Shown: positions 1,455 through 41,316, counted from the stretch's first letter. The stretch: DNA of 64,000 bases from Trueperaceae bacterium (GCA_965213925.1 OZ243927.1:896001-960000); one strand, 5' to 3'. Numbers and translations: made by a program. Notes: generated by a model from the letters alone, not told the origin.

Positions 1455-3677
1455 CTATGGGGAGGTATACACCCAATTTAGAAGTGCGCCTTCAACGCCC
1501 CCCGACACCAGACTGTCGCCATCAGATGACCAATCAAGGGCGAGAGAGCCAAAATCACCGAACGTCGTTTGCTGATGCCCTTCCAACCCCGTAATTCTTT
1601 CACCGGTGGCTGCCACCCAAACATGCACGCCGTCGTCCGCCTTCGCTTCGTCATCGTAGGTTGAACCTGACGTGGCGAGCCGGTGACCGTCAGGGCTCCA
1701 CGCTAACTCGTCAATGCCGTAAGGCGCTTCGATTGTAGCTAATGTTTTCTCTGAAGTACTATCAATGATTTGAACTTTTCCGCTCGACCCGCCGACGGCG
1801 AGCCGCTGGCTGTCAGGACTCCAGGCGATAGTTTTCGGATCTCGGTCAATTGTGAACGTGTGCATAAGGCGGCTAGTTTCCGCGTCCCACACTTTGACCT
1901 CGTCATAGCCTCCTCCAGCGAGCTTTGTCCCATCAGGGCTCCACGCCAGAGTAAAAATAGGGCGATAGTCTTGAACCTCGAATGTTTTGAGTAAGCTACC
2001 TGTCGTCCCATCTCGCACCTTGATCGTGCCATCTTGACCCCCACTTGCCAATCTCGTGCCGTCCGGACTCCAGCCGACTGCGTATACCTCACCACGGTGC
2101 GCGTCAACCGAGAAGAGTTGTTTGCGCGTAGCCATATCCCAAATCTTTAGAGCGCCTTCGTTGTCCTGACCACTGGCGCTTGCTAATTTTGAACCGTCCG
2201 GGTGCCAAGCGATGGCGTGAACAAAAGTGTCAAGCTCCGCTAGTGTACCGAGGCTGCGCCCCGAGGCGGCCTCCCAAACCTTAACGGTTCCGTCGTAACC
2301 TCCGCTCGCTACCTTGCCTTCGTGCAATTTGACAGTGGCGACCCGAGCCGCGTGACCGTTCGACGACATGACCTTTTGTCCGCTCTCGGCGTTCCACACG
2401 CTAAACCAAGGGATGGTGTCGTCGGCCGCAAAACGGTCGCCGTCGGGGTGCCAGTCTGCTCCTAAGACCACTCGAGCCTTCCCTACGACGCGCAGCATTT
2501 CTCTGCCCGTAGCGGCGTCCCAGATTCTTAGTTCACCCTCAGTTCCACCCCCTAAGATGCGATTCGTATTGGGTTCCCAGGCTACGACCAGAGGTTGAAA
2601 GTAATCTTCGTCGTCATCTCTCAACAGGACGCGCACAGGCTGACCCGTGTCAGCGTCCCAGATCACGACCTTGCCGCCGTTGCCGCTACTCACAAACTGC
2701 GAGCTGTCGGCGTTCCAGTCGACGTCCCAGACCCCTCCGAAAACATCAATCTCATAGAGGTGTTCGCCGGTTTCTGCATTCCATACACTGATCGAACGGT
2801 CTCCACCTACGATCTTCTCGCCATCCTGACTCCACGCCACAGCGTTATAGGTGTAATTATCGAGGCTCCAAAGCTCCTGGCCGCTCGCTATGTCCCACAC
2901 CCGCAATAACGCGTCGCCGCAGCTAACAAGTTTAGTCCCATCCGGACTCCAAGCTATATCGGTGACTTCTTCTGTATGTCCGACTAGGTCGGCGACGACT
3001 TCGCCCGTTGCCACAGACCAAACTTTAAGGCTTCCGCCCTTAAACGGTGCACCCGAACCACTTGCCACGAAAAGTCCATCCGGACTAAATGCGACCGCTT
3101 CGGCTTTTGCCGAATAGGTGTCGGAATCGAAATGATCATCGAGAGTGAATTTTAGGCTTCCCGTGGTTGCGTCCCAAAGTTTGACCATGCCGTCTGCCCC
3201 GCTAGTCGCGAGCAACTGTCCAGTCGGGCTCCAATCTAAATAGCGGACCTCCGCTGTATGGCCTGCGCCGAGTTTCCAGGCTACGTTAGTAGAGGGTAAC
3301 TGCCCTTCAACTTCTATCTTGCGCGTCGCTTTCGAGGACGTGCTCTTTGCGGAAAGCGTATAAGTTGTCTCTCCAACCGACCAGACAGCAGCTTCGGATA
3401 AACCGCTGACGTCGCCTATATCTGGCTCGAGAGTGAGCGTCAGCGACTCATCGGGAACTTGCCAGCTCAGCTGTACAGCCTCTCCGGCGGGCACAGTGAG
3501 CGTGGAAGCGGTCAATGACGTGATTAAAGTGGGGTCTGTCTCGAGGTCGACCGGGTTGTTGCCGTCTTTTACCTCATGAGTACACGATACTAACAGAGCC
3601 AAACTAAGAAGGAGGGAGCCGACGAGCCGTCTTTGATAAAAAGCCCGCACGTTCAGGCTGCTGAAATAGCGTCTCAT
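1455..3677 (-). CDS. WD40-repeat lipoprotein (about 14 repeats, probably two beta-propellers)
   Basis: Repeated GH...VAWSPDG..LASG..DG.VK.WD units; lipobox LVSC; ATG at 3677 overlaps the upstream TGA (ATGA). Confidence 0.9.
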   Translation of the reverse strand: MRRYFSSLNVRAFYQRRLVGSLLLSLALLVSCTHEVKDGNNPVDLETDPTLITSLTASTLTVPAGEAVQLSWQVPDESLTLTLEPDIGDVSGLSEAAVWSVGETTYTLSAKSTSSKATRKIEVEGQLPSTNVAWKLGAGHTAEVRYLDWSPTGQLLATSGADGMVKLWDATTGSLKFTLDDHFDSDTYSAKAEAVAFSPDGLFVASGSGAPFKGGSLKVWSVATGEVVADLVGHTEEVTDIAWSPDGTKLVSCGDALLRVWDIASGQELWSLDNYTYNAVAWSQDGEKIVGGDRSISVWNAETGEHLYEIDVFGGVWDVDWNADSSQFVSSGNGGKVVIWDADTGQPVRVLLRDDDEDYFQPLVVAWEPNTNRILGGGTEGELRIWDAATGREMLRVVGKARVVLGADWHPDGDRFAADDTIPWFSVWNAESGQKVMSSNGHAARVATVKLHEGKVASGGYDGTVKVWEAASGRSLGTLAELDTFVHAIAWHPDGSKLASASGQDNEGALKIWDMATRKQLFSVDAHRGEVYAVGWSPDGTRLASGGQDGTIKVRDGTTGSLLKTFEVQDYRPIFTLAWSPDGTKLAGGGYDEVKVWDAETSRLMHTFTIDRDPKTIAWSPDSQRLAVGGSSGKVQIIDSTSEKTLATIEAPYGIDELAWSPDGHRLATSGSTYDDEAKADDGVHVWVAATGERITGLEGHQQTTFGDFGSLALDWSSDGDSLVSGGVEGALLNWVYTSP

Positions 3678-4797
3678 TTGAAGAAGAGGCTCCAAAGGAT
3701 AACTTCTGCTCCTCGGCTACCAGAGACGAGAAACTGGCCGTCCGAACTCCAATCAAGCGTGGTAACTGATCCGATATGACCTATAAGTGAAACAAGCTCT
3801 TGGCCGGTTATGGCGTTCCAGATTTGGACACTTTGGCCGTCGCCGCTGGCGGCGAGTTGAGTACCGTCAGGGCTCCAGCTAAGCCCATAGATAAAGCGGT
3901 TAACGTCTGAATATATAGTGAACGGCTCCGAAGGAGATATCAGGGTCCATACCTTAACCTTGGACGAGTCAAGCGTAGCGGCTAAACGCGTACCGTCAGG
4001 GCTCCAAGCCAAATTGTGCACGCTATCGTAAGTGTCAAGCCCTTTCAAGACAATTTCCTTGCTCGTCGCGACCTCCCAAACGCTAACGTCTCCCCACTGG
4101 TTGCCCGCTGCGAGAAAACGTCCATCTGGACTCCAGACGATGTCAGCGATGCGGCCGGAGATTCCAGAAAAAGACACGCCCTCAGTCCCGGTCGCAGCGT
4201 CCCAGGTCTTAATAGCGCCTATACCGCTGTCTTTTAATTCGCCTCCTGCCGAGCGGACGCCATCCGGCCCCCAGTCGATAATCGCTTCGTAGCTGCCTTC
4301 AATCGTAAGTTGAAGACCTCCAGATGTTACGTCCCAAGTCTTGAATCTAGCCACGCTACCTGTCCCAGCGCCAGGGACGATTTCATAATAAGCAGCTGTT
4401 GTAAAGGCGCTGCCATCAGGCTTCCAAGTTGCGTCATCGAAGCCTGGATAGCTATTGTCGGTGAGAGACGATAGTTTCGTTCCGGTTGTAGTCTGCCACA
4501 GGTAGGCAACACCATCACGGGCAACGCTTAAAACACGGCTGTTGTCTGGGCTGAAGGTTACGGCAGTCACCTCGTCTTGGTGCCCCGCCGCGAAGGTGGT
4601 AATGGTCAGATCCTTCGCAGCAGTGTCTGCATTCCATAGTCCAAGCGTGCCATCTGTGGCTCCTGTGAGAAGTTTAGTGCCCTCTGGATGCCAAGCAATG
4701 TCGGCTTCCCAGGAAGAAAGTCCCTCCGTCTCCTTAGCGCCCTTGAGTTCTCGCAGCGCAGACCCAGTTGAGGCATCAGCAAGAATGGCATGGAGAT
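3674..4797 (-). pseudogene. WD40-repeat protein, 5'-truncated
   Basis: WD40 frame continues upstream of ORF 3674-4570 (HAILADASTG...IAWHPEGTKLLTGATDGTLGLWNA) to about 4797, then switches to the antisense of cas5e sequence with no start codon. Confidence 0.7.
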
Positions 4798-5073
4798 CCC
4801 TAGCCGATCTATCTCGGTCGGCGTGGCTACTATCCGAGCGTCCCGCTGTTTGTCATTGACGGGCTGAAAAAGGCGAGTTTGGAGGAGGCTATCGCTACCT
4901 ATCCCCGTGTCCTAGCCGATAAAGCGGTGCGGTTCGCCGACTGCCACATCGAAGGCAAAGGCAAGGTCGTACACGACCAGCCCGTCAGCTTCGCCACTCA
5001 TACCTTCGGACCCCGGAGGGTCTACCACTGCTGCGTCAGCAAGTTAGGAGCATCATGTACGTCACCGAACTGA
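4798..5073 (+). pseudogene. cas5e: type I-E Cas5 (Cas5e/CasD), C-terminal fragment
   Basis: Frame reads P*PIYLGRRGYYPSVP...HDQPVSFATHTFGPRRV, matching the Cas5e P.wp.yLGR...Ps.P and D.P.sF...RrF..R.v motifs; overlaps the cas6e start; N-terminal half absent. Confidence 0.8.
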
Positions 5074-5723
5074 CCTTAAACCAGGACAACCTCTTCGCCA
5101 TGCGCGACGTCGCCGACCGCTACGAGACGCACCGCTCTGTGAAGCGCTTGACCGAAGGGATGGAGCGCAGGGTTTTGTGGCGGCTCGACATGCAGCGTGA
5201 ATGGCGGCTCACGGTTCAATGTGAGCGTCCGCTCGAGCCGCGCTATGTGTCCAAGGCGATGCCCGGATACGCCGATCAAGTCCGGAGCGCGGAGGTTGCT
5301 ACGAATTTCGACCCTGGCGACCTGCTCCTCTTCCAGCTCGAGGCGAACCCGACCGTGAAGTGTGCCAAAAAGCGGCGGGCGCTAAAGAGTATGGCTGAGC
5401 TACAGGAGTGGCTACAAAGGAAGTTTGATGATGCAGGTTGTGAACTCCTAGACTTTGCAATCTTGAAGCAGCAAGCGTTACGGTTATATCGCCAGAAGAG
5501 GCCAGATGAACAAGAAAATGACGACGAGAATGGGTGTAAGTACGCCATGTTCAACAGCGTCAGGTTCATGGGCAGCACTAAAGTAGTAGACCTTAAAGCG
5601 CTCAAAGATACGCTCGAGGCTGGCATCGGCAGCGCGAAGGGATATGGCTTTGGGTTGCTCTCATTGCGACCTATCCCTTACAGAGACATAGCTGGAGTTA
5701 AAGTCTCAAAAAGCGTGTGTTGA
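5055..5723 (+). CDS. cas6e: type I-E CRISPR endoribonuclease Cas6e (CasE/Cse3)
   Basis: MYVTELTL..Y.TH..LWR N-terminus, F.LEANPT, C-terminal G-loop GIGSAKGYGFGLL; RBS AGGAG upstream; array directly downstream. Confidence 0.93.
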   Translation: MYVTELTLNQDNLFAMRDVADRYETHRSVKRLTEGMERRVLWRLDMQREWRLTVQCERPLEPRYVSKAMPGYADQVRSAEVATNFDPGDLLLFQLEANPTVKCAKKRRALKSMAELQEWLQRKFDDAGCELLDFAILKQQALRLYRQKRPDEQENDDENGCKYAMFNSVRFMGSTKVVDLKALKDTLEAGIGSAKGYGFGLLSLRPIPYRDIAGVKVSKSVC

Positions 5724-5729
5724 TCGAGC

Positions 5730-5878
5730 CTTTTCCCCACTCGCGTGGGGGTGGCGCGGGCGACTGATGCGCCTCGCCCTACTCCTCGCCTTTTCCCCAC
5801 TCGCGTGGGGGTGGCGCGCAAACGGGCGCGGCGAAGGGCAAAGAGGGCATTCTTCCCCACATTGGTGGGGGCGGTACC
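5730..5878 (+). CRISPR. type I-E mini CRISPR array: 3 repeats (third atypical), 2 spacers
   Basis: CTTTTCCCCACTCGCGTGGGGGTGGCGCG at 5730-5758 and 5790-5818; diverged TTCTTCCCCACATTGGTGGGGGCGGTACC at 5850-5878; exact 60-bp period; CCCCAC/GTGGGG stem; spacers 5759-5789 and 5819-5849. Confidence 0.92.
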
Positions 5879-6048
5879 ATCAGCAGAGCAAATCAAAAGC
5901 GAAAGCTGGAGTAAGTCCAGTGCATCGCGGCGAATCGCCAAAATACATTGGACGGCTGATGTATAGAAATGTCGATATCCAAGACATTGGGCGCATGATG
6001 TTTGAAACTCTTGATTAGACGAGGACTTACAGGAAGGCGTAGCAACTC

Positions 6049-6711
6049 CTATGTTGCGACTGGATGTCGAATCTCTCCAATCATGAGTCCCATTACTATG
6101 CTCGATTGGAACCAGCAGAAATTCTCGTCAACAGGGGCACGAAGTACATCCGTGAAACGCAGGTCGTACCCGCAAATTACGCAACAGTGGAGTTCCTCTT
6201 CGTCACCTCTACCGATCACTATAGCGCTCCCATAGCTATCACACTCGGTGTGTAGAAAGTTCTTATGATGTACGCAAACGCTGCAAAAGCTATACATCCA
6301 CTCCCGCCGAAAGAAAGGTTGCGTGTCCTCGAGAAGGCAGCGCGGACAATATTGAGTTGTGACAATTGGTTTAGGAGTTTTCGTCTGACGTGGGCGGTGA
6401 GAAAGTAGCTCACGCGAGCGGACACTCGCGCTTTTAATGCGTACCCGTGTCGGCGCAAGCAGCGCTTCGATATCGCCCACTGCTTGACCCGTACCCCGAG
6501 CCAAAACCTCGACCACGCTTTCTAGCTGACTGCCCTTTCGGTCTCTTATCCCTTTAGGGATAAGAGACTTGAGCAGCTTTTTTCCACTCCGCTTCTCCAA
6601 CACCTTCCAAAATCTATCCCAAGCTAAGCCGTTGCTCACAGCCAACCTAGCAACCCAGGAAGCGAAACTCTCACCTTGAAACAGTGAAGCGTGATACAGC
6701 CACAAATCCAT
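6049..6711 (-). CDS. tniQ: TniQ family Tn7-like target-selector protein
   Basis: GESFASWVARLAVSNG N-terminal motif; QYCPRCL.ED..PFFRREW.....C..H...L...C zinc motifs; C-terminal CVICGYDL; ATG at 6711 follows a TACACT -10 box. Confidence 0.88.
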   Translation of the reverse strand: MDLWLYHASLFQGESFASWVARLAVSNGLAWDRFWKVLEKRSGKKLLKSLIPKGIRDRKGSQLESVVEVLARGTGQAVGDIEALLAPTRVRIKSASVRSRELLSHRPRQTKTPKPIVTTQYCPRCLLEDTQPFFRREWMYSFCSVCVHHKNFLHTECDSYGSAIVIGRGDEEELHCCVICGYDLRFTDVLRAPVDENFCWFQSSIVMGLMIGEIRHPVAT

Positions 6712-6832
6712 ATGACAGTGTAGCAAATAGAGCAGCTTTCTTCGAAAGGACTGAAGTTGTAAACCGCTTCGGAGATCGCCCGTATACAGCCACTTTGTGA
6801 TATTATGCAGATGTGCCCCGCCCGAGCCAGAG

Positions 6833-6880
6833 CGATTCTCAGTATTCTTTACCTATTCTCAAAATTCTTTGTTTCTGACA
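6833..6880 (-). mobile_element. putative Tn7-like transposon end
   Basis: Minus strand reads TGTCAGAA-ACAAAGAATTTTGAGAATAG-GTAAAGAATACTGAGAATCG: terminal TGT, 8 bp, then two 20-bp-period direct repeats AAAGAATnnTGAGAAT. Confidence 0.7.
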
Positions 6881-6924
6881 CACCTATTCGAATAGAGGCG
6901 ACTGCGGCGGATAGTTCGTAATCA

Positions 6925-6958
6925 TGACCTCTTTGCCCTTCGCCGCGCCCTCTTGCTT
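6925..6958 (-). other. protospacer (6925-6955) plus 5'-AAG PAM (6956-6958) matching spacer 2
   Basis: Target CAAGAGGGCGCGGCGAAGGGCAAAGAGGTCA vs spacer CAAACGGGCGCGGCGAAGGGCAAAGAGGGCA, 28/31 identical. Confidence 0.9.
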
Positions 6959-7192
6959 ATAGTTGTTCATCCCGTACTGAAGTTCCCAAGGGACGATGTG
7001 CGCAAATGAAAAGAGCGCCCTGACCTCTTCGCAATCGTCATAAGTGATGAGCCATTTGTGCTTCACCTTTTGCATCACGGCGGCAAAACGCTCGTGATCG
7101 AAGGTCGTGTGCAGCTTCCCTTTTTTGCCGTAGAGCTTTGACTTTGTAGCGGATAAATAGGGCGGGTCCAGGAAAATAAAGACGTTTTCGCC

Positions 7193-7380
7193 GCCTAACG
7201 CACCGGGAGACCCGGATGCTGCGGACCCTAAACCCGGATGCTGCGGACCCTAACGCACCGGGAGACCCGGATTTCGCCGGACCCTAACGCACCGGGAGAC
7301 CCGGATGCTGCGGACCCTAACGCACCGGGAGACCCGGATGCTGCGGACCCTAACGCACCGGGAGACCCGGATGCTGCGGA
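7193..7380. repeat. 33-bp tandem repeat, 6 units (33,22,34,33,33,33 bp)
   Basis: Unit CCCTAACGCACCGGGAGACCCGGATGCTGCGGA; encodes SAASGSPGALG on the minus strand. Confidence 0.95.
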
Positions 7381-8041
7381 TGGCGCTAAGACGACCTCTT
7401 CGTAGTCGAGATTGGTAATCTTGGTCCCTTCAAGAAGAGGGGCGACGCGCCGTAAACGCCCTATCGAGGACTGCGTGAAGCGCTTTTCAAATGCACCTTG
7501 CGAATAGCCGCCCGCTTCGACCGTGCCCGAAAAGGTGATGCGGTTGAGGAGAAAAAAGCGGATGGCTCTGTGTAAGGGTGCGTCGGGTACGTTATCGACC
7601 AATGAGCGGTGCAGCGTGCGTCCGTCTGTCACCGTATCTTTCTGCTGCTGCACGCCTTCGACGAGCGCCTCTGGGCAATCGCGTAGGTAAAGCCAGAAGT
7701 GGTAAAGCTCTGCGTTGAGGTCGCTAATCCAGAACGAGGCGTTTGGGTGTTGCTGCCGCAAAGCTAAAAAGACAGAGCCGCCCCCTATGAAGGGTTCGCG
7801 GAACTCGCTGAACGTTGGAACGAGCGGCAGGATGGTTTTAAGTGCTTTTGCCTTACCGCCTGGATACCTCAGCGGTGTTTTTACCGAAGTGAAAAGACCG
7901 TCTTGCATTGACGTGCATCGTATCAGTCAATCGTGCCAGCTACTACCTCGAGGTGCAGGGTTAGGACACTACACGGAACAGTCACGCGCGAATGTCGCCT
8001 GACAGGAACGTAAAATATTTCACTTTGCTAAACTACCTCTA

Positions 8042-9688: not shown

Positions 9689-11428
9689 ATGTCGAGAGCA
9701 CATAAATACGACGTGATTGTGATTGGCGCGGGCGGCTCAGGGTTGATGGCGGCGCGGTACGCGGCGCAGGAGCCCGGCGTGTCCGTCGCGGTCATCAGTA
9801 AACTTTACCCGACCCGCTCGCATACAGGGGCGGCGCAAGGGGGTGTGGGCGCAGCTTTAGGCAACGTCACCGACGACCACCCCGACTGGCACGCCTTCGA
9901 TACGGTCAAGGGTGGCGACTACCTAGCGGACCAAGACGTCGCGGAGATGTTCGCGTACGAAGTCGTCGAGGCAGTCTACGAGTTAGAGCACATGGGCTTG
10001 CCCTTCTCACGTACGCCTGAAGGCAAAATCGCCCAGCGTAAATTCGGTGGGCACACCCGCGAATTCGGCAAGAGCGCCGTCGAACGTGCCTGCTACGCGG
10101 CGGACCGCACGGGTCACATGATTTTGCAGACGCTCTATCAGCAGTCCATCAAGAACAACGTGACCTTTTTCAACGAGTTCCACGTGCTCGACATGATCAT
10201 GGAAGCCGGTGAGTGTCGCGGCGTGGTGGCGTACGAGCTTGCCACGGGCGAGCTTCACACCTTCCAGGCGAAAGCCACGATTGTCGCCACCGGCGGCAAC
10301 GGGCGCATGTTCAAAGTGACCTCGAACGCGCACGCCTTGACGGGCGACATGATGAGCGTCGTCTACCGGCGCGGCATCCCGATTGAAGACCCCGAGTTTT
10401 ACCAGTTCCACCCGACGGGTCTCTACAAAATTGGCGTTTTACTGACTGAGGGCGCAAGAGGTGAAGGTGGGATTTTGCGTAATAGCGAGGGCGAGCGCTT
10501 TATGGAGCGTTACGCGCCTTCCATCAAGGACTTAGCGCCGCGGGACATGGTCTCGAGGGCGATGTACCTAGAGATGCGCGAAGGGCGCGGCACCGGACCC
10601 GACGCCGACTACATCCACCTCGACCTCACCCACATCGACGATCACATCATCGAGACGCGCCTCCCCGATATCACCGAGTTCGCCCGGATTTACCTAGGCG
10701 TTGACCCCTTAAACGAGCCCGTCCCCGTGCAACCCACCGCGCACTACGCGATGGGTGGCATCCCCACGACCATCGACACCGAAGTCATCATGGACGGCGA
10801 CAACGCCGTCGTGCCAGGGCTCTACGCCGCAGGTGAAACAGCGTGCGCCTCGCTGCACGGCGCGAACCGCCTCGGCACAAACTCGTTAGGCGACCTCATC
10901 GTGTTCGGACGCCGCGCGGGTATCTTCGCTGCTCGTTACGCCGCGGGAGCGGAGTACGGCAAGCTGCCTTTAGACGCGCAAGACTTTGCTAAGAGCCAAC
11001 TCGACACCGCGCTGAACGGCTCTGGTAAGGAGCGCGTGAGCCGCATTCGTAAAGAGATGCAAAACACCATGATGGACAACGCCTCGGTCTTCCGCACTGA
11101 AGAGACCCTGTGTACGCAGATCGAAAAGCTCAGAGAACTCAAAGAGCGCTATAAAGGCATCGGCGTTGAGGACAAGGGCGAGCAGTTCAACACGGAGCTG
11201 ATGGAAGCGATTGAACTCGGCTTCCTTTTAGACAACGCCGAGCACCTCGTCCACGCGGCGTATAACCGCAAGGAATCGCGCGGCGCGCACTCCCGCGAGG
11301 ACTACAAGGAGCGCAACGACGACGAGTGGCTCAAGCACACGCTCGTCTATAAAGACGGCGACGGCGTGCGCATCGACTATAAACCCGTAACCTTGGGCAA
11401 GTACGAGCCTAAGCCGAGAGTTTATTAA
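9689..11428 (+). CDS. sdhA: succinate dehydrogenase flavoprotein
   Basis: [19 protein letters not shown]-His motif, HGANRLG. Confidence 0.97.
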
Positions 11429-11514
11429 GCAACTCAGCGTCTCAGCTAGTCAGCATTTCAGGTCTTTCCTGACTAGCTGACTAGCTGACCGGCTGAAATG
11501 CTATAAGGATTTTT

Positions 11515-12237
11515 ATGAACGCAGACGCAATGAAACCCAGAGAAATCAACGTCAAGATCAAGCGCTTTAACCCCGAAGAGGACAAGCGACCTTATTGGGC
11601 GGAGTACAAAGTCGAAGCGCGACCGACTGACCGCGTGTTAGACGTGCTCCACGAGATTAAATGGGAAATCGACGGCACGCTCTCCTTCCGCCGGAGCTGC
11701 GCGCACGGCATCTGCGGCTCGGACGCGATGCTTATCAACGGCGTGAACCGCTTAGCGTGCAAGATTTTGGTCAAGGATTTGGGCGATGACATCTCGGTTG
11801 AGCCGATTCGCGGGCTCGAGGTGCTTAAAGACATGGTTGTCGACATGGAGCCCTTCTTCGACTCCTACAAAGCGGTGCTGCCCTACTTCATCAACGACGA
11901 CGCCCCGCCCACCACCGAGCGCTACCAGAGCCCCGAAGACCGCGAAGTGTTCGACGACACGACCAAGTGCATCCTCTGCGCGGCGTGCACGACCTCTTGC
12001 CCGATCTTCTGGACGAACGGCTCGTACTTGGGTCCAGCGGCGATCGTTAACGCGCACCGCTTCATCTTCGATTCACGTGACAGCGGCACTACCGAGCGTT
12101 TAGAGGTGCTCAATCAGGCCAACGGCTTGTGGCGCTGCCGCACCGCATATAACTGCACGCAGGCGTGCCCGCGCGGGATTCCGGTGACGCAAGCGATTGA
12201 AGAGGTTAAGAAGGAGTTGTTGTGGCGCAGAGCGTAA
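11515..12237 (+). CDS. sdhB: succinate dehydrogenase Fe-S subunit
   Basis: SCAHGICGSD, CILCAACTTSCP, CRTAYNCTQACP. Confidence 0.97.
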   Translation: MNADAMKPREINVKIKRFNPEEDKRPYWAEYKVEARPTDRVLDVLHEIKWEIDGTLSFRRSCAHGICGSDAMLINGVNRLACKILVKDLGDDISVEPIRGLEVLKDMVVDMEPFFDSYKAVLPYFINDDAPPTTERYQSPEDREVFDDTTKCILCAACTTSCPIFWTNGSYLGPAAIVNAHRFIFDSRDSGTTERLEVLNQANGLWRCRTAYNCTQACPRGIPVTQAIEEVKKELLWRRA

Positions 12238-12262
12238 GCTTCTCAGTTCAGTAGTAAGTTAG

Positions 12263-12287
12263 AAGAGGTGCAAGAAAAGCACCTCTT
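12263..12287. terminator. hairpin between convergent sdhB and ridA, likely terminator
   Basis: AAGAGGTGC-aagaaaa-GCACCTCTT. Confidence 0.6.
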
Positions 12288-12308
12288 TACTATTTCCTCA
12301 AGACCCAC

Positions 12309-12692
12309 TCAACCAGAAACTAGCGCCACCGCCTCAATCTCAATCAGCACGTCTTTCGGCAGCCGCGCCACCTCCACCGCGCTCCGCGCAGGCGGCTCAC
12401 TCTCAAAGAAACGTCCGTAGACCTCATTCACCGTACTGAAATCCGCCATGTCTTTCAAGAAGCAGGTGCATTTTATGGTGTTGACGAGGCTCGAGCCCCC
12501 CGCCTCCAGCACCGCCTGAAGATTCTTCATCACCTGCTCGGTTTGCGCCGCAACGTCACCCTCTAAAAGGTCTCCATTAGGCAAGAGTGCAATCTGCCCT
12601 GAGGTGAAGAGCAAGTCGCCGACGCGCACCGCTTGAGAGTAAGGACCGATAGCGGCGGGCGCGTTGTCTGTGGAGATAACTGTTTTATTCAT
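12309..12692 (-). CDS. ridA: RidA/YjgF enamine deaminase
   Basis: APAAIGPYSQAV, PARSAVEV..LP...IEIE. Confidence 0.93.
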   Translation of the reverse strand: MNKTVISTDNAPAAIGPYSQAVRVGDLLFTSGQIALLPNGDLLEGDVAAQTEQVMKNLQAVLEAGGSSLVNTIKCTCFLKDMADFSTVNEVYGRFFESEPPARSAVEVARLPKDVLIEIEAVALVSG

Positions 12693-12720
12693 AGCGCTAC
12701 CTTAACGTACTCGAGGACTG

Positions 12721-12797
12721 AGAGAAAAGGACTGTTACGAAGTTTTCGCAGAGCGAAAGGACTGAGTAAAAGCTTTTCTCTCAGCACTCAGTCCTTT
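12721..12797. repeat. dispersed palindromic repeat (second copy at 36263-36341)
   Basis: Shared AGAGAAAAGGACTGTTACGAAGTTTT...AAAGGACTGAG...GCTTTTCTCTCAG..CTCAGTCCTTT. Confidence 0.8.
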
Positions 12798-12807
12798 AAC
12801 CTCGCTT

Positions 12808-13839
12808 CTACCTTAAACTAAAATACAAAAACAGCACAAAAAGATAGATACAACCTAAAATCCACACGCGGTACGGGTACCAGGTTTGGCGGCGCAGCTT
12901 ATCTAAGCGGCGGCGTGACGGGTACGCCTCCTCAACTTTGTAAATGCCGCTCATCGTCTCGCCGATGTTCACAGATGAAGCTTCTTCTTTGGGCAAGTCG
13001 TAGCGCTTGGGCTTGGGCTCGACGGTTTCGGCGAAGAGGACGACGGCGGTCACGTTATCGGGGCTGCCGCGTTCGTTGGCGTTTTCTATGAGTTTTGCGG
13101 CGGCGTCTTCGGGCGCGTGCTCGCTCAAAATCTGTAGAATCACCTCGTCGGAGAGGAGCGTGGTGACGCCGTCGCTGCAGAGCATGAGCTTGTCGCCCGA
13201 GTGCACCTCGAAGTGGAAGATGTCGAGCTTGAATTCGGGGGTGGAGCCTAGCGCGTTGGTGATGATGTTGCGCCAGCGGTGATGCCGCGCCTCCTCCTCG
13301 CTGAGGAGCCCTTGGCGCACCCTGTCGGCGACCCAGGAGTGGTCTTGGGTGAGTTGGTGGATTTCGCCGTTACGAACCAGATAGGCCCTCGAGTCCCCCA
13401 CATGCCCCACCAACCCGACTTGGTCATCCACTAAAAGCGTCGTCAGCGTCGTGCCCATACCGCGACTTTCGGGGTGCTCGGTCGCGTAGTCATAAATCTC
13501 TAAGTTGGCATCTTGCACTGCCCTGGCAATTGCCGCAGGTGGATGCGCCTGCGCCTTCTTTAGGGTGCGGCTCAGCACCTTGACCGCGCTCTGGCTGGCG
13601 ATTTCGCCCGACTGGTGTCCGCCCATCCCGTCCGCGACGATGGCCAGGACGCCTTGCGGCGTCGTGTCCACAAAATAGGTGTCTTGGTTGACCTTGCGCA
13701 CCTCGCCCGCCTCGCTCTGACCCGCAAAGTGGATGCGCGTCGCGGCGAGTTGCCCCTTCGATTGCGGCTTAGTTTGAGGCTTAGCCTCAAACGCCGCTTC
13801 AGCATCTTTCTTTTTCGCTCGGGAGGGTGCAGACTTCAT
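12808..13839 (-). CDS. PP2C-type Ser/Thr phosphatase (Stp1/PrpC-like) with C-terminal TM helix
   Basis: R..NQD, VADGMGG, HVGDSRAY, LCSDG, DNVT. Confidence 0.93.
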   Translation of the reverse strand: MKSAPSRAKKKDAEAAFEAKPQTKPQSKGQLAATRIHFAGQSEAGEVRKVNQDTYFVDTTPQGVLAIVADGMGGHQSGEIASQSAVKVLSRTLKKAQAHPPAAIARAVQDANLEIYDYATEHPESRGMGTTLTTLLVDDQVGLVGHVGDSRAYLVRNGEIHQLTQDHSWVADRVRQGLLSEEEARHHRWRNIITNALGSTPEFKLDIFHFEVHSGDKLMLCSDGVTTLLSDEVILQILSEHAPEDAAAKLIENANERGSPDNVTAVVLFAETVEPKPKRYDLPKEEASSVNIGETMSGIYKVEEAYPSRRRLDKLRRQTWYPYRVWILGCIYLFVLFLYFSLR

Positions 13840-14113
13840 GAAGGTCGATTATACATCGGCTACCCGGCAGCGTTGCGTAAATCTCTATTAGTGGCGCGCG
13901 AGTACGTTCGCCGAGGGCAAAAGTGAGGGATAAAACGAGGCGAATGCTGGTGAACTGTGGGCAAATTGGGGGACGTTATTCAGAAACGTTCTCGTAGCGT
14001 ACGAACACCATCTACTGATGCCTAGTTCTTCACCCCTTTTCACGCCAGGTGCCTCATTGACGGGTACTTTAACGACTTCGTGACCCCTGACTCTCATACG
14101 GTATGCTGTCAAG

Positions 14114-15574
14114 ATGAAGTTTGCTCATCAAATTGCGGAAGAGGTCCGCTCTAGGCAGGTCAGTGCGGAAGAGGTCGTGCGAGCGGCGCTCGAGCGTGCC
14201 GAGCGCGTACAGCGGGACCTCAATGCGTTTCTTACAATCTCCTATGACGCGGCACTTGAAAAGGCTCGAGCCCTAGACCAAAAACTAGCGTCAGGAGAAG
14301 ACATTGGACCTCTTGCGGGTGTCCCTATAGCGGTCAAAGACAACATCTGCACCGCAGGCATTCGCACGACGGCGGGGTCGAAAAGTTTAGGGACCTTCGT
14401 ACCGCCTTACAGTGCGACGGTGGTGGCGCGGCTCGAGGCGGCGGGCGCAATCGTGATTGCGAAGACGAACCTCGATGAATTCGGGATGGGAGGCTCGAGC
14501 GAAAACTCGGCGTATGGGGCGATGAGAAATCCCTGGAACCCGTTAAGAGTCCCCGGCGGCTCCTCGGGCGGCTCCGCCATCGCCGTTTCAGCGGGCGTCG
14601 TGCCGCTCGCGCTCGGCACCGATACGGGCGGCTCGGTGCGTCAGCCTGCAGCGTACACGGGGCTGATTGGCTTTAAGCCGACGTACGGCAGATTGCCACG
14701 TTACGGCGTAGTGGCGTTTGCGAGTTCGCTCGACCAAATCGGCGTCTTATGCCGCTCGTCGCAAGATTTGGCGTTGACGATGGACGCCGCGAGCGGTCAC
14801 GACCCCTGCGACGCGACGAGTTTAGAGGCCGCGCCCGCTTTTATGGCGGGGCTCGAGACCTGGACCTCTTTAGAAGGGCTGCGCGTCGGTATCATTCAAG
14901 AGCTTTCCGGTGAAGGTAACAGCGAGGGCGTCCGAGCGGCGCTAGAATGCACCGCAGAAACCCTGACCTCGTTAGGCGCAACGGTAGGCGAAGCCTCTAT
15001 CCCTAACGCGCCGCACGGCATCGCCGCATACTACCTCGTCGGGCCCGCTGAGGCGTCCGCCAACTTAGCCCGCTTCGACGCCATGCTCTATAGCGAGCGT
15101 TCGGGCGAGAACCGTTTAGGACAAGCTGAGGTGATGATGCGCTCGAGGGGTAAAAATTTCGGACCCGAGGTGCGCCGCCGCATCCTGATGGGCACCTACG
15201 CGCTTTCGGCAGGCTACTACGACGCCTACTACGGCAAAGCGCTCAAGGTGCGCCAGCTTATCGCGGACGATTTTGCCAGGGCCTTCGAAGATTTCGACCT
15301 ACTCATGACGCCGACCACGCCGAGCACCGCGTACGAGCTAGGCAAGAAGTCAGACGACCCGCTCGCAATGTACTTAGATGATATTGATACGGTCCTTGCA
15401 AATCTCGTAGGCACCGGAGCAATCAGTGTCCCGGCGGGTACGGTAGACGGTTTGCCTTGCGGCGTGCAGCTTTTCGCGCCCGCCTTAGAGGATGAGAAGT
15501 TGGTCGCGGTAGCGCAGAGGCTCGAGCAAGCAGCGGGGGAAACCTTTTCCCCAGTCGCTCCTGACTACGTCTAA
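14114..15574 (+). CDS. gatA: Asp/Glu-tRNA amidotransferase subunit A
   Basis: Amidase signature GGSSGGS, GTDTGGSVRQPA; EVRRRILMGTYALSAGYYDAYY. Confidence 0.96.
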   Translation: MKFAHQIAEEVRSRQVSAEEVVRAALERAERVQRDLNAFLTISYDAALEKARALDQKLASGEDIGPLAGVPIAVKDNICTAGIRTTAGSKSLGTFVPPYSATVVARLEAAGAIVIAKTNLDEFGMGGSSENSAYGAMRNPWNPLRVPGGSSGGSAIAVSAGVVPLALGTDTGGSVRQPAAYTGLIGFKPTYGRLPRYGVVAFASSLDQIGVLCRSSQDLALTMDAASGHDPCDATSLEAAPAFMAGLETWTSLEGLRVGIIQELSGEGNSEGVRAALECTAETLTSLGATVGEASIPNAPHGIAAYYLVGPAEASANLARFDAMLYSERSGENRLGQAEVMMRSRGKNFGPEVRRRILMGTYALSAGYYDAYYGKALKVRQLIADDFARAFEDFDLLMTPTTPSTAYELGKKSDDPLAMYLDDIDTVLANLVGTGAISVPAGTVDGLPCGVQLFAPALEDEKLVAVAQRLEQAAGETFSPVAPDYV

Positions 15575-15827
15575 ATGATACGTCTAAGTAAGAGGTCAAA
15601 TTCAGTCGCGTTTGAGCTGTTGATGACAGCTTCGGTGATGAAGAGGGCTCAAGCCTCCAATGATTGCGCCCGCTACGCCCAAACTGTTATAGTCGTCTCA
15701 TCAAACGATAGTAGGTAAGGGCTCAGCGTCAACCGTTTTACTGGGTGGGGCTCTTTTTGAAGTCATTGCGCCATTTATCGCTGCCTGATAGCAGACCTAC
15801 CACCGTTTCGAAAGGAAGAGGTGAAGG

Positions 15828-17125
15828 ATGAAGAGGTTCATTTTAGGGTTGCTCTCGCTGAGCCTGGTGTTCGGCGCGGCGCAGGCGCAAACGACGATCC
15901 GCTTTTCGGGGGGCGCGTCGGGTCCGGGGCTCGAGACCGAGCGCCAATTGGCCCAGATGTACATGGAGCAAAACCCGGACGTCACGGTCGAGGTGCTCCC
16001 CGGTCCCGACTCCTCGGACGAGCGTTTTTCTCTGTACCTCCAGCTCTTCGAGGCGCAGTCCGCCGACTTCGACGTGTTACAGCTCGACATCATCTGGCCC
16101 GGTCAGCTCGCGCAGCACCTCGTAGACTTGAATCAATACGGCGACATCCAGAGTTCGACCAGCGAGTTCTTCCCGGCCATCGTCGAGGCGAACACGGTGG
16201 ACGACAAGCTCGTCGCGATCCCTTGGTTCACCGACGCCGGGCTGCTCTACTACCGCACCGACCTCCTGGAGCAGTACGGCTTTGGCGGTCCGCCCGAGAC
16301 TTGGGCGGAGCTTGAAGAGATGTCCACCGCCATCCAAGAGGGTGAGCGCCAGAACAACCAAGACTTTAGCGCCTTTGTGTGGCAGGGTCAGTCTTACGAG
16401 GGGCTCACCTGCGACGCTCTGGAGTGGATCAACTCGGCGGGCGGCGGACAGATTATCAGCCCCGAGCAGGTTATTACGGTCTTCAACCCGAACGCGGTGG
16501 ATATGATAGCCCGCGCCGCAAGTTGGGTCGGCAACATCTCGCCTACAGGCGTCACGGGCTTTCAAGAGGAGGACGCGCGCAACTTCTTCCAGCCGGCAAC
16601 GCCGCGTTTATGCGTAACTGGCCCTACGCCTACAGCATCATGAACGCCGACGACAGCCCTATTTCGGGCAACTTCGACGTGGTGCCGCTGCCCCACATCG
16701 AGGGTAACAATTCCGCCGCCGCCTTGGGCGGCTGGAACTTAGGCGTGTCGCGCTACAGCCAAAACCCTGAGGTTGCCGCCGACGTCGCCGCGTTTTTCGC
16801 CTCACCCGACGCGCAGAAGCTCCGCGCGGTCGAGGGCAGCTTTATCCCGACGCGCCCCGCTCTGTTCGAAGACCAAGAGGTCTTGGAGGCGCAACCCTTC
16901 TTCGGACGTCTTTTGGACGTCTTTACGGGCGCCGTAGCGCGCCCTTCTGCGCCGACGGGTCAGCAGTACAACGAGGTCTCGAGGGCCTTCTACACCGCCG
17001 TCCACAACGTGCTCACAGGCGAGGAACAAGCGGAGATCGCCCTGGAGATTCTCGAGCTTGACCTCCAAGACATCACCGGCTTCGAAGTCGGCGACCCGCA
17101 GACGCAGACGGGTTCGACTCAGTAG
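15828..17125 (+). pseudogene. sugar (trehalose/maltose-type) ABC substrate-binding protein, one-base frameshift near 16592
   Basis: Signal peptide, DIIWPG, YEGLTC in frame 1; GNAAFMRNWPYA...RP in frame 2; could be a sequencing indel. Confidence 0.8.
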
Positions 17126-39684: not shown

Positions 39685-41316
39685 CTAAGCCTGCAGCCTA
39701 GCAAAGCGAGACACCCGCGTCTGCTCAGGCTTGATGTCTTCGAACCAGTCCGCTAGCCTCTGAAAATTGATCGCCGCGGCAGTGGCGACGTTTTGCAGGT
39801 GGTTTTTCCTTAGGCTAATGTAGCGGCTCTTCCTTAACCCTGTCGCTCTCACCCCTTGCGAGAAGGTGCCCTCGATCCCGGCTCGGCGGTCGTAGCGCCG
39901 TTTCCATTCGCGCGTCCCCTTCTCCTCGCGGTACTTCGTGAGCACCTCGTGCTGCGCCTCTGGCCTGAAACGCAGCTTACGCGAGTTCGTCGGTGACTCG
40001 TTTATACAGCTGCGGCTAGCGCTACAGGCTCGGCAGTCGCCCCGCGCGAACTTCGTGGTGATCACCTCCTGGCCCTTGAGTTCGAAGACGCTCCACTTGC
40101 CGCTCCTTTTCCCCATTGGGCAGATGGCAACACGTTTCTCCCAATCCAGAGTGAAGTCTTTAAGGGCGAAACCCGACTTGGCTTGGGCATGGGTGTTGGG
40201 TTTCAGGGGACCGATGAGTTCCAAACCTAGCTCCTTCTTACAAGCCACGACCAGGTCCGAGTTGAGGTAGCCGCCGTCAACGAAATGTTCACGTGGTAAC
40301 AGCGCCCGCTCCTCTAACGCTTCGTGGATAGATTCCAGCTGGCCTATATCAGAAAGGGCAGGCTCGGTCGTCTCAACGTGAGTGATGAGGTGCGGCGAGC
40401 CGTCGTCGCAGGTCTCGGTGTAGTGGACCTTGTAGCCGATCCAGTCGAGGGCACCCTTCTTGCCGTAGTGCGCCTTGGGGTCGTAGGGAGAGTCGAGCCG
40501 CTCAGCCGCGGGCTGCAAGTTGCCCTTCTCGCGCCACTTAACCTCGCCGCCGATGACCTCGTACTGCCCTACCCAGCAGCGGCGCAGCAGCTCGACCTCC
40601 GGCAGCTTAATAAGGGAACCCAAGCCGGAGTCGTAAACCGAGCGCAGCAACCGGAAGCCGTCGCGCCCGATCTGCTCGGCGAGCTCTCGCTCCTTCTCTA
40701 CGCCCCTAGGCACCCGTTCCTTCTCAAAGCGTTTCGCGTAACGCTTGTACCAATCCTCTTCGACCTGCGTCCTCAACCATTTAGGGGCAACCACCGCGAG
40801 CCGGTTTAAGGTCGTGCGTAAGGTCTCACCAGCGACCTCGAGGCGGTTGAGCCTGCGCACGCCCGCTAAAATGTGGGTGGAGTCGGTTCTAGCTTTGCCG
40901 CAGGATTTGAGCAACTTAGCCGACCTGCACGTCTCAATCAGCTTATCGAGCAGCAGATGCTCGGCGTCTCCTTCCAGCAGGCGGCTGCGGAAGCGCGACA
41001 AAATGGAATAGTGGAAGCCGGGATCATCCAACTCCAACCCTAGAAGGTATTTCAGATCAATACGCCCCCTCACCGCGTCGGCAGCTTGCCTGTCCGAGAG
41101 CCCCTCGGCGAACTGCACGACCGTGACCAGAGCTAAGCGCCAGGGCGCTTCGGCGGGTTGTCCTACTGCCGGAAAGAGGTGGGCGAAGGTCTCGTCTGTG
41201 AAGAGCGTGCAGAGGTTATCGCGCAGAGTGAGGTAGCGGTTGCCTTTGGGGAAGGCAGCTTGGGCTATGCGAACAGTTGCGGCAGGGATTGGCAAGTCCG
41301 TCTGGGGTCTAAGCAT
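39685..41316 (-). CDS. IS1182 family transposase
   Basis: LSDRQAADAVR.RID.KY.LGL, RTDSTH, SPYDP.A, GYKVH.TE, VD.GY, Y.RRAG.EGT. Confidence 0.93.
   Translation of the reverse strand: MLRPQTDLPIPAATVRIAQAAFPKGNRYLTLRDNLCTLFTDETFAHLFPAVGQPAEAPWRLALVTVVQFAEGLSDRQAADAVRGRIDLKYLLGLELDDPGFHYSILSRFRSRLLEGDAEHLLLDKLIETCRSAKLLKSCGKARTDSTHILAGVRRLNRLEVAGETLRTTLNRLAVVAPKWLRTQVEEDWYKRYAKRFEKERVPRGVEKERELAEQIGRDGFRLLRSVYDSGLGSLIKLPEVELLRRCWVGQYEVIGGEVKWREKGNLQPAAERLDSPYDPKAHYGKKGALDWIGYKVHYTETCDDGSPHLITHVETTEPALSDIGQLESIHEALEERALLPREHFVDGGYLNSDLVVACKKELGLELIGPLKPNTHAQAKSGFALKDFTLDWEKRVAICPMGKRSGKWSVFELKGQEVITTKFARGDCRACSASRSCINESPTNSRKLRFRPEAQHEVLTKYREEKGTREWKRRYDRRAGIEGTFSQGVRATGLRKSRYISLRKNHLQNVATAAAINFQRLADWFEDIKPEQTRVSRFARLQA

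Follow-up and report, generated by a model that had tools for sequence, protein, structure and literature searches.

A probable, decayed remnant of a transposon that combined TniQ with a guiding type I-E Cascade, behind the dam-family gene of a Truepera-like bacterium

A stretch of 64,000 nucleotides from a Trueperaceae bacterium (GCA_965213925.1 OZ243927.1:896001-960000), here called the window and numbered from its first letter, carries a compact group of cas genes, a CRISPR array and a tniQ gene between positions 4,798 and 6,958. This segment is probably what is left, on the side next to the target, of a TniQ-coupled transposon guided by a type I-E Cascade; it would have homed to the spot where it now lies, directly behind a dam-family gene of a Truepera-like bacterium, and has since decayed. 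Judged against characterized systems, its layout is the one expected of a CRISPR-associated transposon (CAST) that has homed. Observed directly are which genes are present, the array, the match between spacer and target with its protospacer-adjacent motif (PAM), the orientation of that match and its spacing to a TGT end; in addition, the Cas6e and TniQ clades appear to occur together on other contigs. The features concerned are as follows.

5730..5878, plus strand: minimal I-E-type array of three repeats and two spacers (direct-repeat search, hairpin folds)
5730-5758, 5759-5789 and 5790-5818, plus strand: repeat 1, spacer 1 and repeat 2, in that order (direct-repeat search)
5819-5849 and 5850-5878, plus strand: spacer 2, the putative homing guide, and the atypical repeat 3 (direct-repeat search)
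6925..6958, minus strand: protospacer (6955-6925) with its 5' AAG PAM (6958-6956), found as the spacer match and lying within the final codons of the Dam-family gene
6727..6880, minus strand: transposon end, with the terminal TGT (6880-6878) followed by tandem 16-mers at 6870-6855 and 6850-6835 (sequence, motif search)
6881..6885, no strand: five bases abutting the end, a candidate copy of a 5-bp target-site duplication (from position only, by reference to Tn7-family behavior)
6884..7908, minus strand: Dam-family (D12 class) N6-adenine methyltransferase, the target gene (PF02086, TIGR00571)
5893..6711, minus strand: tniQ pseudogene of 272 codons with an in-frame TAG at codon 221 (6049-6051) (PF06527, read-through translation)
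5055..5723, plus strand: cas6e, intact, 222 aa (PF08798, TIGR01907, PADLOC, PDB match)
4804..5073, plus strand: 3' fragment of cas5e, the last ~89 codons plus the stop (profiles, identity to P0161)
4796..4803, no strand: left breakpoint, where a truncated WD40 gene (minus strand) meets the truncated cas5e (plus strand) (translations and alignment to P0161)

Spacer 2 matched positions 6925-6955 of the minus strand at 28 of 31 bases, with three mismatches. The chance expectation for a match of at least 28/31 within the window was ~1e-8, a second match to spacer 2 was found in 0/100 shuffles, and an inverted-repeat search recovered the same spacer-protospacer pair as 33 nt with 91% complementarity. 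The three bases 5' of the protospacer on the minus strand (6958-6956) were AAG, the canonical type I-E PAM. The PAM-distal side of the protospacer faces the TGT end at a distance of 44 bp, and the first PAM base lies 78 bp from the element. In the accessible portions of the published descriptions, an I-D CAST inserts 75 ± 6 bp from the PAM (PMC9881144) and an I-F CAST 43 to 45 bp away from its target's 3' terminus (PMC11300857). The guide is the last spacer of the array and its downstream boundary is atypical repeat 3; CAST homing guides are likewise described as bounded by an atypical repeat in the part of PMC8649781 that was available.

The array repeats recur with a 60-bp period, the third copy being divergent. 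All three (3/3) folded into a stem of 7 bp with a loop of 4 nt, and in repeat 3 the stem is kept while the loop and both flanks differ. An I-E repeat with a 7-bp stem and a 4-nt loop appears in the available text of PMC11300857. Repeat 1 begins 6 bp past the cas6e stop codon, so that there is no room for a leader. No further copy of the repeat core was present in the window, and an Rfam scan of 5600-6100 returned no CRISPR repeat family, its sole match being at chance level (E 0.81). Spacer 1 (5759-5789) had no second site in the window, and its top matches among plasmids (E 0.2) and among phages (E 0.8) were not significant.

The TGT terminus (6880-6878, minus strand) lies 3 nt beyond the TAG stop codon of the Dam-family gene (6886-6884). 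With the protospacer in the last methylase codons, the element is therefore placed directly behind a host gene, like Tn7-family elements. Inside the terminus, the end motif AAAGAATNNTGAGAAT occurs in two copies (6855-6870 and 6835-6850) 20 bp apart and is absent elsewhere in the window. A promoter and terminator scan of 4700-7100 gave nothing above shuffles. The target gene matched PF02086 over profile positions 1-172 and, separately, 175-253, and TIGR00571 as well. The gene is itself broken: a 33-bp tandem repeat of 4.5 copies plus a 22-bp variant occupies 7210-7380, falling between Pfam positions 172 and 175, just ahead of the DPPY motif, and three-frame translation showed that the reading frame shifts across it. 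It could be a pseudogene or be subject to repeat-driven phase switching.

The uninterrupted tniQ open reading frame (ORF) spans 6049-6726 on the minus strand and matched PF06527 with E 2.3e-17 and 64.4 bits (cutoff 27). Read from the ATG at 6711 through the internal stop, the gene has 272 codons, equal to its full-length relative P0002. It converges on the cas operon, and its original stop codon is 14 bp from the last repeat. Codon 221, TAG in the window, is Trp in the relative P0004, and at one of eight near-invariant zinc-ligand positions the window has Tyr where P0002 and P0004 have Cys. The fold model of the protein had a mean predicted local distance difference test score of 73 and a predicted template modeling score of 0.70. 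In a structure search with this model, only TniQ/TnsD chains were present among the 19 matches listed with E up to 1.1, led by the V-K TniQ 8bd5_Q (E 7e-5) and the I-B TniQ 8fcu_P (E 2e-4).

For Cas6e, the profile matches were PF08798 at E 3.6e-34, TIGR01907 at 66.9 bits (cutoff 45.2) and the PADLOC Cas6e model at E 1.8e-34. The top PDB match was Thermus thermophilus Cse3 (1wj9/2y8w, E 3e-21), and in that alignment the protein keeps a histidine aligned with the active-site region of Cse3. The cas5e and cas6e reading frames overlap (4804..5073 and 5055..5723), cas5e coming first. The cas5e fragment (4804-5070) covered only positions 138-217 of 217 in PF09704 (E 0.0023; 18.4 bits where the cutoff is 23) and only positions 144-227 of 230 in TIGR01868 (E 0.0046; 16.7 bits where the cutoff is 68.95). 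It is, however, 82% identical across its whole length to P0161, a full-length Cas5e of 220 aa that itself scored above the cutoff (TIGR01868 88.3 bits; PADLOC Cas5e E 2e-33), and the alignment places the start of the fragment at about residue 132 of 220. Pfam was searched with 50 of the 62 window ORFs of at least 150 aa, the other 12 being overlapping shadow frames and two sdh genes. Among these 50 ORFs no cas1, cas2 or cas3 was found, the upstream part of the element being lost.

An earlier, sequence-only reading of this DNA had described an I-E-like array, a PAM-flanked match to the last spacer outside the element, a TGT end with tandem repeats, a convergent tniQ, a Cas6e and the 3' half of a Cas5e, all of which are present where that reading placed them. 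The first five of these calls are borne out by the hairpin in all three repeats, the 28/31 match with AAG at 44 bp from TGT, the TGT at 6880-6878 with two 16-mers 20 bp apart, and the PF06527, TIGR01907 and PF08798 scores given above. The Cas5e call holds as a C-terminal fragment by virtue of its 82% identity to P0161, which passes the profile; the fragment alone falls under the profile cutoffs.

A working order can be proposed from these parts. In an intact copy, a cas8e-cas11-cas7-cas5e-cas6e operon would be transcribed straight into the leaderless two-spacer array, and the 7-bp hairpins of the transcript would be cut by Cas6e. Cascade loaded with CRISPR RNA 2 would then bind the AAG-flanked site in the last methylase codons, and TniQ, presumably attached to Cascade at its PAM-distal (Cas6e) end, would recruit a transposase that may have been of the TnsC/TnsB type. 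Insertion would follow ~45 bp past the protospacer, the tniQ-proximal end pointing toward the target, perhaps with a target-site duplication. After insertion, a single deletion or rearrangement would have taken the stretch from inside cas5e to inside the WD40 gene, and tniQ would have decayed by gaining a nonsense codon and losing a zinc ligand.

Relatives of both TniQ and Cas6e were searched. Among 1.84 billion representatives, TniQ had four relatives better than E 1e-27, namely P0002, full length and 56% identical, and the fragments P0003, P0004 and P0005; the next match, at E 7e-15, stood among 829 generic TniQ matches. Cas6e had four relatives at 58 to 89% identity, after which identity dropped to 33%. 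As far as these sequence comparisons reach, each protein thus belongs to a very small, isolated clade. A quick TniQ tree comprised 75 representatives: P0001, which is the window protein, P0002, and those of P0006-P0079 with 180-560 aa, fragments and longer proteins being left out. In it, the window protein and P0002 formed a clade with a Shimodaira-Hasegawa-like approximate likelihood ratio support of 97 on a long stem of 1.29. An ESM Atlas look-up of P0002 gave generic TniQ clusters only. The same two contig sizes recurred for both proteins: TniQ P0002 (56%) and Cas6e P0154 (58%) each have a contig of 5,838,999 bp in their records, and the TniQ fragments P0003 and P0004 (78% and 67%) and Cas6e P0155 (87%) are all recorded on one of 7,077 bp. 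Because of the equal contig sizes and the similar divergence, Cas6e and TniQ appear to be co-inherited. On the 7,077-bp contig, the record splits tniQ in two and cas6e (P0155) runs out of frame past about residue 110, so that either this copy is also decaying or the contig contains indel errors.

Two explanations under which the cas genes would play no part in targeting can be weighed against these observations. Defense arrays sometimes contain self-targeting spacers, and the locus might then be a defense-type I-E system carried as cargo by a TniQ transposon, the spacer match in dam being unrelated to targeting. Defense systems are often cargo of Tn7-like elements, according to the available part of PMC8649781. 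The cargo explanation is nevertheless very unlikely. It leaves unexplained that the one matching site is found 44 bp away from the end of the element itself, that its strand is correct, that its PAM-distal side faces this end and that its PAM is the canonical AAG; that a two-spacer leaderless array ends in an atypical repeat and no cas1, cas2 or cas3 is present in the window; and that isolated Cas6e and TniQ clades apparently occur jointly. Still more improbable is a rearrangement that joined the ruins of an I-E locus to those of a TniQ transposon with which it had no connection. In favor of that account, both modules are damaged and the region has other rearrangement scars. Against it, relatives of Cas6e and of TniQ apparently occur together on another two contigs, with divergence that matches, the last repeat and the original tniQ stop are just 14 bp apart, and the spacer-to-end geometry speaks against a chance juxtaposition.

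Several observations weigh against a Tn7-like, Cascade-guided transposon. TnsA, TnsB and TnsC were absent from the 50 window ORFs scanned, as were Cas7, Cas8e and Cas11. Likewise, no transposase genes and no cas7, cas8e or cas11 of close relatives were seen, since only a distant locus was returned. No second copy of the terminus or of the end motif was found in the window, and the motif by itself is only moderately unusual (mean of 0.32 matches in shuffles, with at least two matches in 4/100). The same-contig placement of the relatives rests on equal contig sizes, with no adjacency seen. All TniQ structures in the PDB come from CASTs or Tn7, and the fold match therefore says TniQ rather than CAST TniQ. 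The guide itself is imperfect: counted from the PAM, two of the three mismatches of spacer 2 occupy positions 4 and 5, which fall in the I-E seed, so that recognition of exactly 6925-6955 would be weak today. All three (3/3) mismatches alter Dam codons, so that the guide suits another allele better than the present one. Some CAST homing guides tolerate mismatches; either this guide does so as well, or the site or the spacer drifted after insertion. The earlier reading of the segment as the remnant of a Tn7-like I-E CAST thus stands as to gene identities, guide match and end geometry, and lacks its transposase, no tnsA, tnsB or tnsC gene having been seen. Because none was seen here or in the relatives, the words Tn7-like and transposon are drawn from TniQ, one end and the geometry only, and with transposase genes, second end and duplication missing, membership among Tn7-like CASTs is not established, although the proposed mode of action is that of a classical CAST.

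The searches for related loci were read with their reach in mind. A profile search of genome contigs with the TniQ alignment returned one locus only, L001, with a TniQ 25% identical and no cas genes; the window's genome and the 5.84-Mb genome were both missing from its output, and it is uninformative on the I-E link. L001 is a Tn7-like element of the actinomycete Sphaerisporangium viridialbum (9911-16212) in which two TniQ genes lie around ORFs of 252 aa and 708 aa and the gene of a TniB-like ATPase. The element adjoins a Tn3-family transposase, with no cas genes within 20 kb. By tblastn against plasmids, no close relative of either protein was found: TniQ had its best match, at 26% identity, within a Mu-transposase/TniB/TniQ operon of Agrobacterium, and Cas6e had its best match, at 36% identity, in Thermus.

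These plasmid operons bear on the nature of the missing transposase. The element may have been RNA-guided with a non-Tn7 partner, that is, with a TnsA-less TniA/TniB/TniQ core (Tn5053- or V-K-like) or some other transposase, which would make it CAST-like in action and not strictly Tn7-like. Such a partner is a real if lesser possibility. The nearest annotated plasmid TniQs (26 to 31% identity) are found in Mu-type transposase/TniB/TniQ operons without tnsA, so the core could be Tn5053/V-K-like rather than Tn7 proper, which again counts against a Tn7-like element. In addition, tniQ lies directly inside the end with no tnsABC operon between the two, where I-F3 elements have that operon, and the best structural match of the protein was a small V-K TniQ. 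On the other hand, the identity to the plasmid TniQs is low, and the 252-aa and 708-aa ORFs upstream of TniB in L001 are possibly TnsA and TnsB, although neither matched Pfam. The content of the window points neither way on transposase type.

Among the sampled rows, the nearest annotated Cas6e was that of T. thermophilus, at 34 to 36% identity, whereas full-length Streptomyces Cas6e matches were 24 to 27% identical and two partial ones 29 to 30% (25 sampled rows). On this comparison of protein sequences, the Cascade looks to be of a Deinococcota-type I-E lineage and not of the Streptomyces one.

As for the state of this copy, the leftward WD40 gene and the rightward cas5e both lack their 5' parts at ~4796-4803, and a single deletion or rearrangement between them would explain both losses. 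The missing cas8e, cas11 and cas7 would belong to the part removed at this breakpoint. With cas5e and the WD40 gene cut, and with tniQ carrying a nonsense codon and lacking a zinc-ligand Cys, the copy is dead as judged from its reading frames. Alternatively, the left junction could have arisen through misassembly, or could mark an inversion or translocation instead of a deletion; the remaining parts of the element (cas8e-cas7, transposase genes, other end) would then lie elsewhere in the 4.58-Mb genome, of which only 64 kb is in the window. Frame changes also split other window genes (WD40 at 3674-3695, the solute-binding gene at 16379-16643, and dam), which could mean an error-prone assembly. 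This explanation is unlikely: the left junction is not within a repeat, and the tniQ TAG and the Cys-to-Tyr change are substitutions, which indel-type sequencing errors do not explain and which fit real decay.

The window is otherwise ordinary chromosome, with housekeeping genes throughout. Its SdhB falls in the same 90%-identity cluster as that of Truepera radiovictrix, which supports a Deinococcota host. The sequence-only reading had proposed such a host and a probably defective copy, and both proposals agree with the SdhB clustering and with the cut cas5e, the TAG and lost Cys of tniQ and the lack of transposase genes in the window. A threonyl-tRNA synthetase (P0165) on a second public genome (4,393,473-bp contig) is at least 90% identical to the host's. 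An unrelated insertion sequence transposase (DDE_Tnp_1_6 with DUF772) lies at 39685-41316 on the minus strand. The WD40-repeat gene is very large and in pieces (1455-4795, minus strand); its ORFs 1455-3695 and 3674-4570 overlap, which implies a frame change near 3674-3695, and the second is open to ~4795. The solute-binding gene (SBP_bac_1, 15828-17125, plus strand) is split into ORFs 15828-16643 and 16379-17125, which match the N-terminal and C-terminal parts of the profile. With this third frame-broken gene, either the genome is pseudogene-rich or the assembly contains indel errors.

Beyond this dead copy, we lean, with some reserve, toward a living family of TniQ-dependent type I-E CASTs in Truepera-like Deinococcota, which would have captured a Thermus-type Cascade independently, homed to the 3' end of the dam-family gene by means of a guide next to an atypical repeat, inserted ~45 bp past the protospacer and provided the first coupling of an I-E Cascade to TniQ for RNA-guided transposition. 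Candidates for intact relatives are the 5.84-Mb genome, with its full-length TniQ P0002 and Cas6e P0154, and several small environmental contigs; an intact relative of the element probably lies in the former, which is public. CASTs are valued as programmable DNA-insertion tools and are a textbook case of a transposon repurposing an immune system, and among type I effectors none is understood better than the I-E Cascade. If confirmed, an I-E element that works with TniQ and homes in the classical geometry would count as a further case of independent, convergent capture, would bring CASTs to Deinococcota, would add the tail of a dam-family gene as a new kind of attachment site and would offer a Cascade-TniQ interface to compare with those of I-F3 and I-B. 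Since the present copy is dead, its value is that of a pointer, supplying query proteins, an end motif and a guide-target rule with which an intact relative may be found.

In the literature, no TniQ-linked I-E CAST was found, although such loci could be listed in supplementary tables to the preprints by Rybarski and Hsieh. The accessible part of a 2024 review (PMC11656645) lists "I-E" among Tn7-like captures without detail, citing Faure 2019, Rybarski 2021 and Faure 2023. The term does not occur in the main text or two supplementary files of Faure 2023, and the I-E loci in the available text of the Rybarski 2021 preprint are only Rpn-associated and non-Tn7. The sequence-only reading had named I-F3, I-B, I-D and V-K as the CAST subtypes; that list was incomplete, I-E (I-E5), I-C and IV-A having also been published.

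The published type I-E CAST is that of the telomeric TnsBC elements of Streptomyces (Hsieh et al., bioRxiv 10.1101/2024.11.13.623437, available in part), classified as variant I-E5 in the accessible text of PMC12669027. It is the sole I-E CAST found in print and, as far as the partly available sources go, has no TniQ, keeps Cas3 and shows no insertion beside a protospacer. Like the present element, I-E5 ties an I-E Cascade to a transposon; in the same partial sources it has lost cas1 and cas2, and neither gene is among the window ORFs scanned. In contrast, the available text of the preprint gives it an active cas3, one end plus a telomere, and no protospacer by the ends (10.1101/2024.11.13.623437), whereas the element described here has TniQ, an adjacent protospacer at CAST spacing and housekeeping-gene surroundings. 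Because of the TniQ and the adjacent protospacer, it is distinct from I-E5.

Two further I-E systems invite comparison. The canonical I-E system of T. thermophilus has the closest annotated Cas6e (35 to 36%), the same overlapping cas5e-cas6e order and the same kind of hairpin. It has cas3, cas1, cas2 and long arrays, whereas the array here has two spacers, no leader, and abuts tniQ. The Rpn-associated I-E loci, in the available part of the Rybarski et al. 2021 preprint, lack cas3, which is likewise not among the window ORFs scanned, resemble the present locus in sometimes having self-targeting spacers, and were proposed to be mobile. The same portion of that preprint (Rybarski et al. 2021) defines them by a PDDEXK Rpn-like protein and explicitly as non-Tn7; in contrast, no Rpn-like Pfam match was found among the window ORFs scanned, and TniQ is present here.

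Among elements with TniQ, the cyanobacterial I-B and I-D CASTs share with this one a type I Cascade captured independently by TniQ-bearing Tn7-like elements. The I-D insertion distance of 75 ± 6 bp, counted from the PAM start (PMC9881144, as available), compares with 78 bp here, and the I-B TniQ (8fcu_P) was the second-best structural match of the window TniQ. They differ in Cascade subtype, phylum and gene order. In addition, I-B homing is protein-only via TnsD in the accessible part of PMC11656645, whereas the site by the end matches a spacer here. The I-F3 CASTs (Tn6677/VchCAST and relatives), as described in the available portions of PMC8649781, PMC11656645 and PMC11300857, resemble it in several respects: TniQ is paired with a Cascade lacking adaptation and nuclease genes (none being seen among the window ORFs scanned), the array is very short, an atypical repeat bounds the homing guide, and insertion takes place just downstream of a host gene at a fixed distance past the PAM-distal end of the protospacer. 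They differ in that the effector here is I-E (Cas6e, Cas5e, a 7-bp/4-nt hairpin and an AAG PAM) and not I-F, and in that the TniQ has 272 aa against roughly 350 to 400 aa, with marginal similarity (6pif, E 0.006). Furthermore, tniQ here has the end to itself and is convergent with the cas operon, and the target is a dam-family gene.

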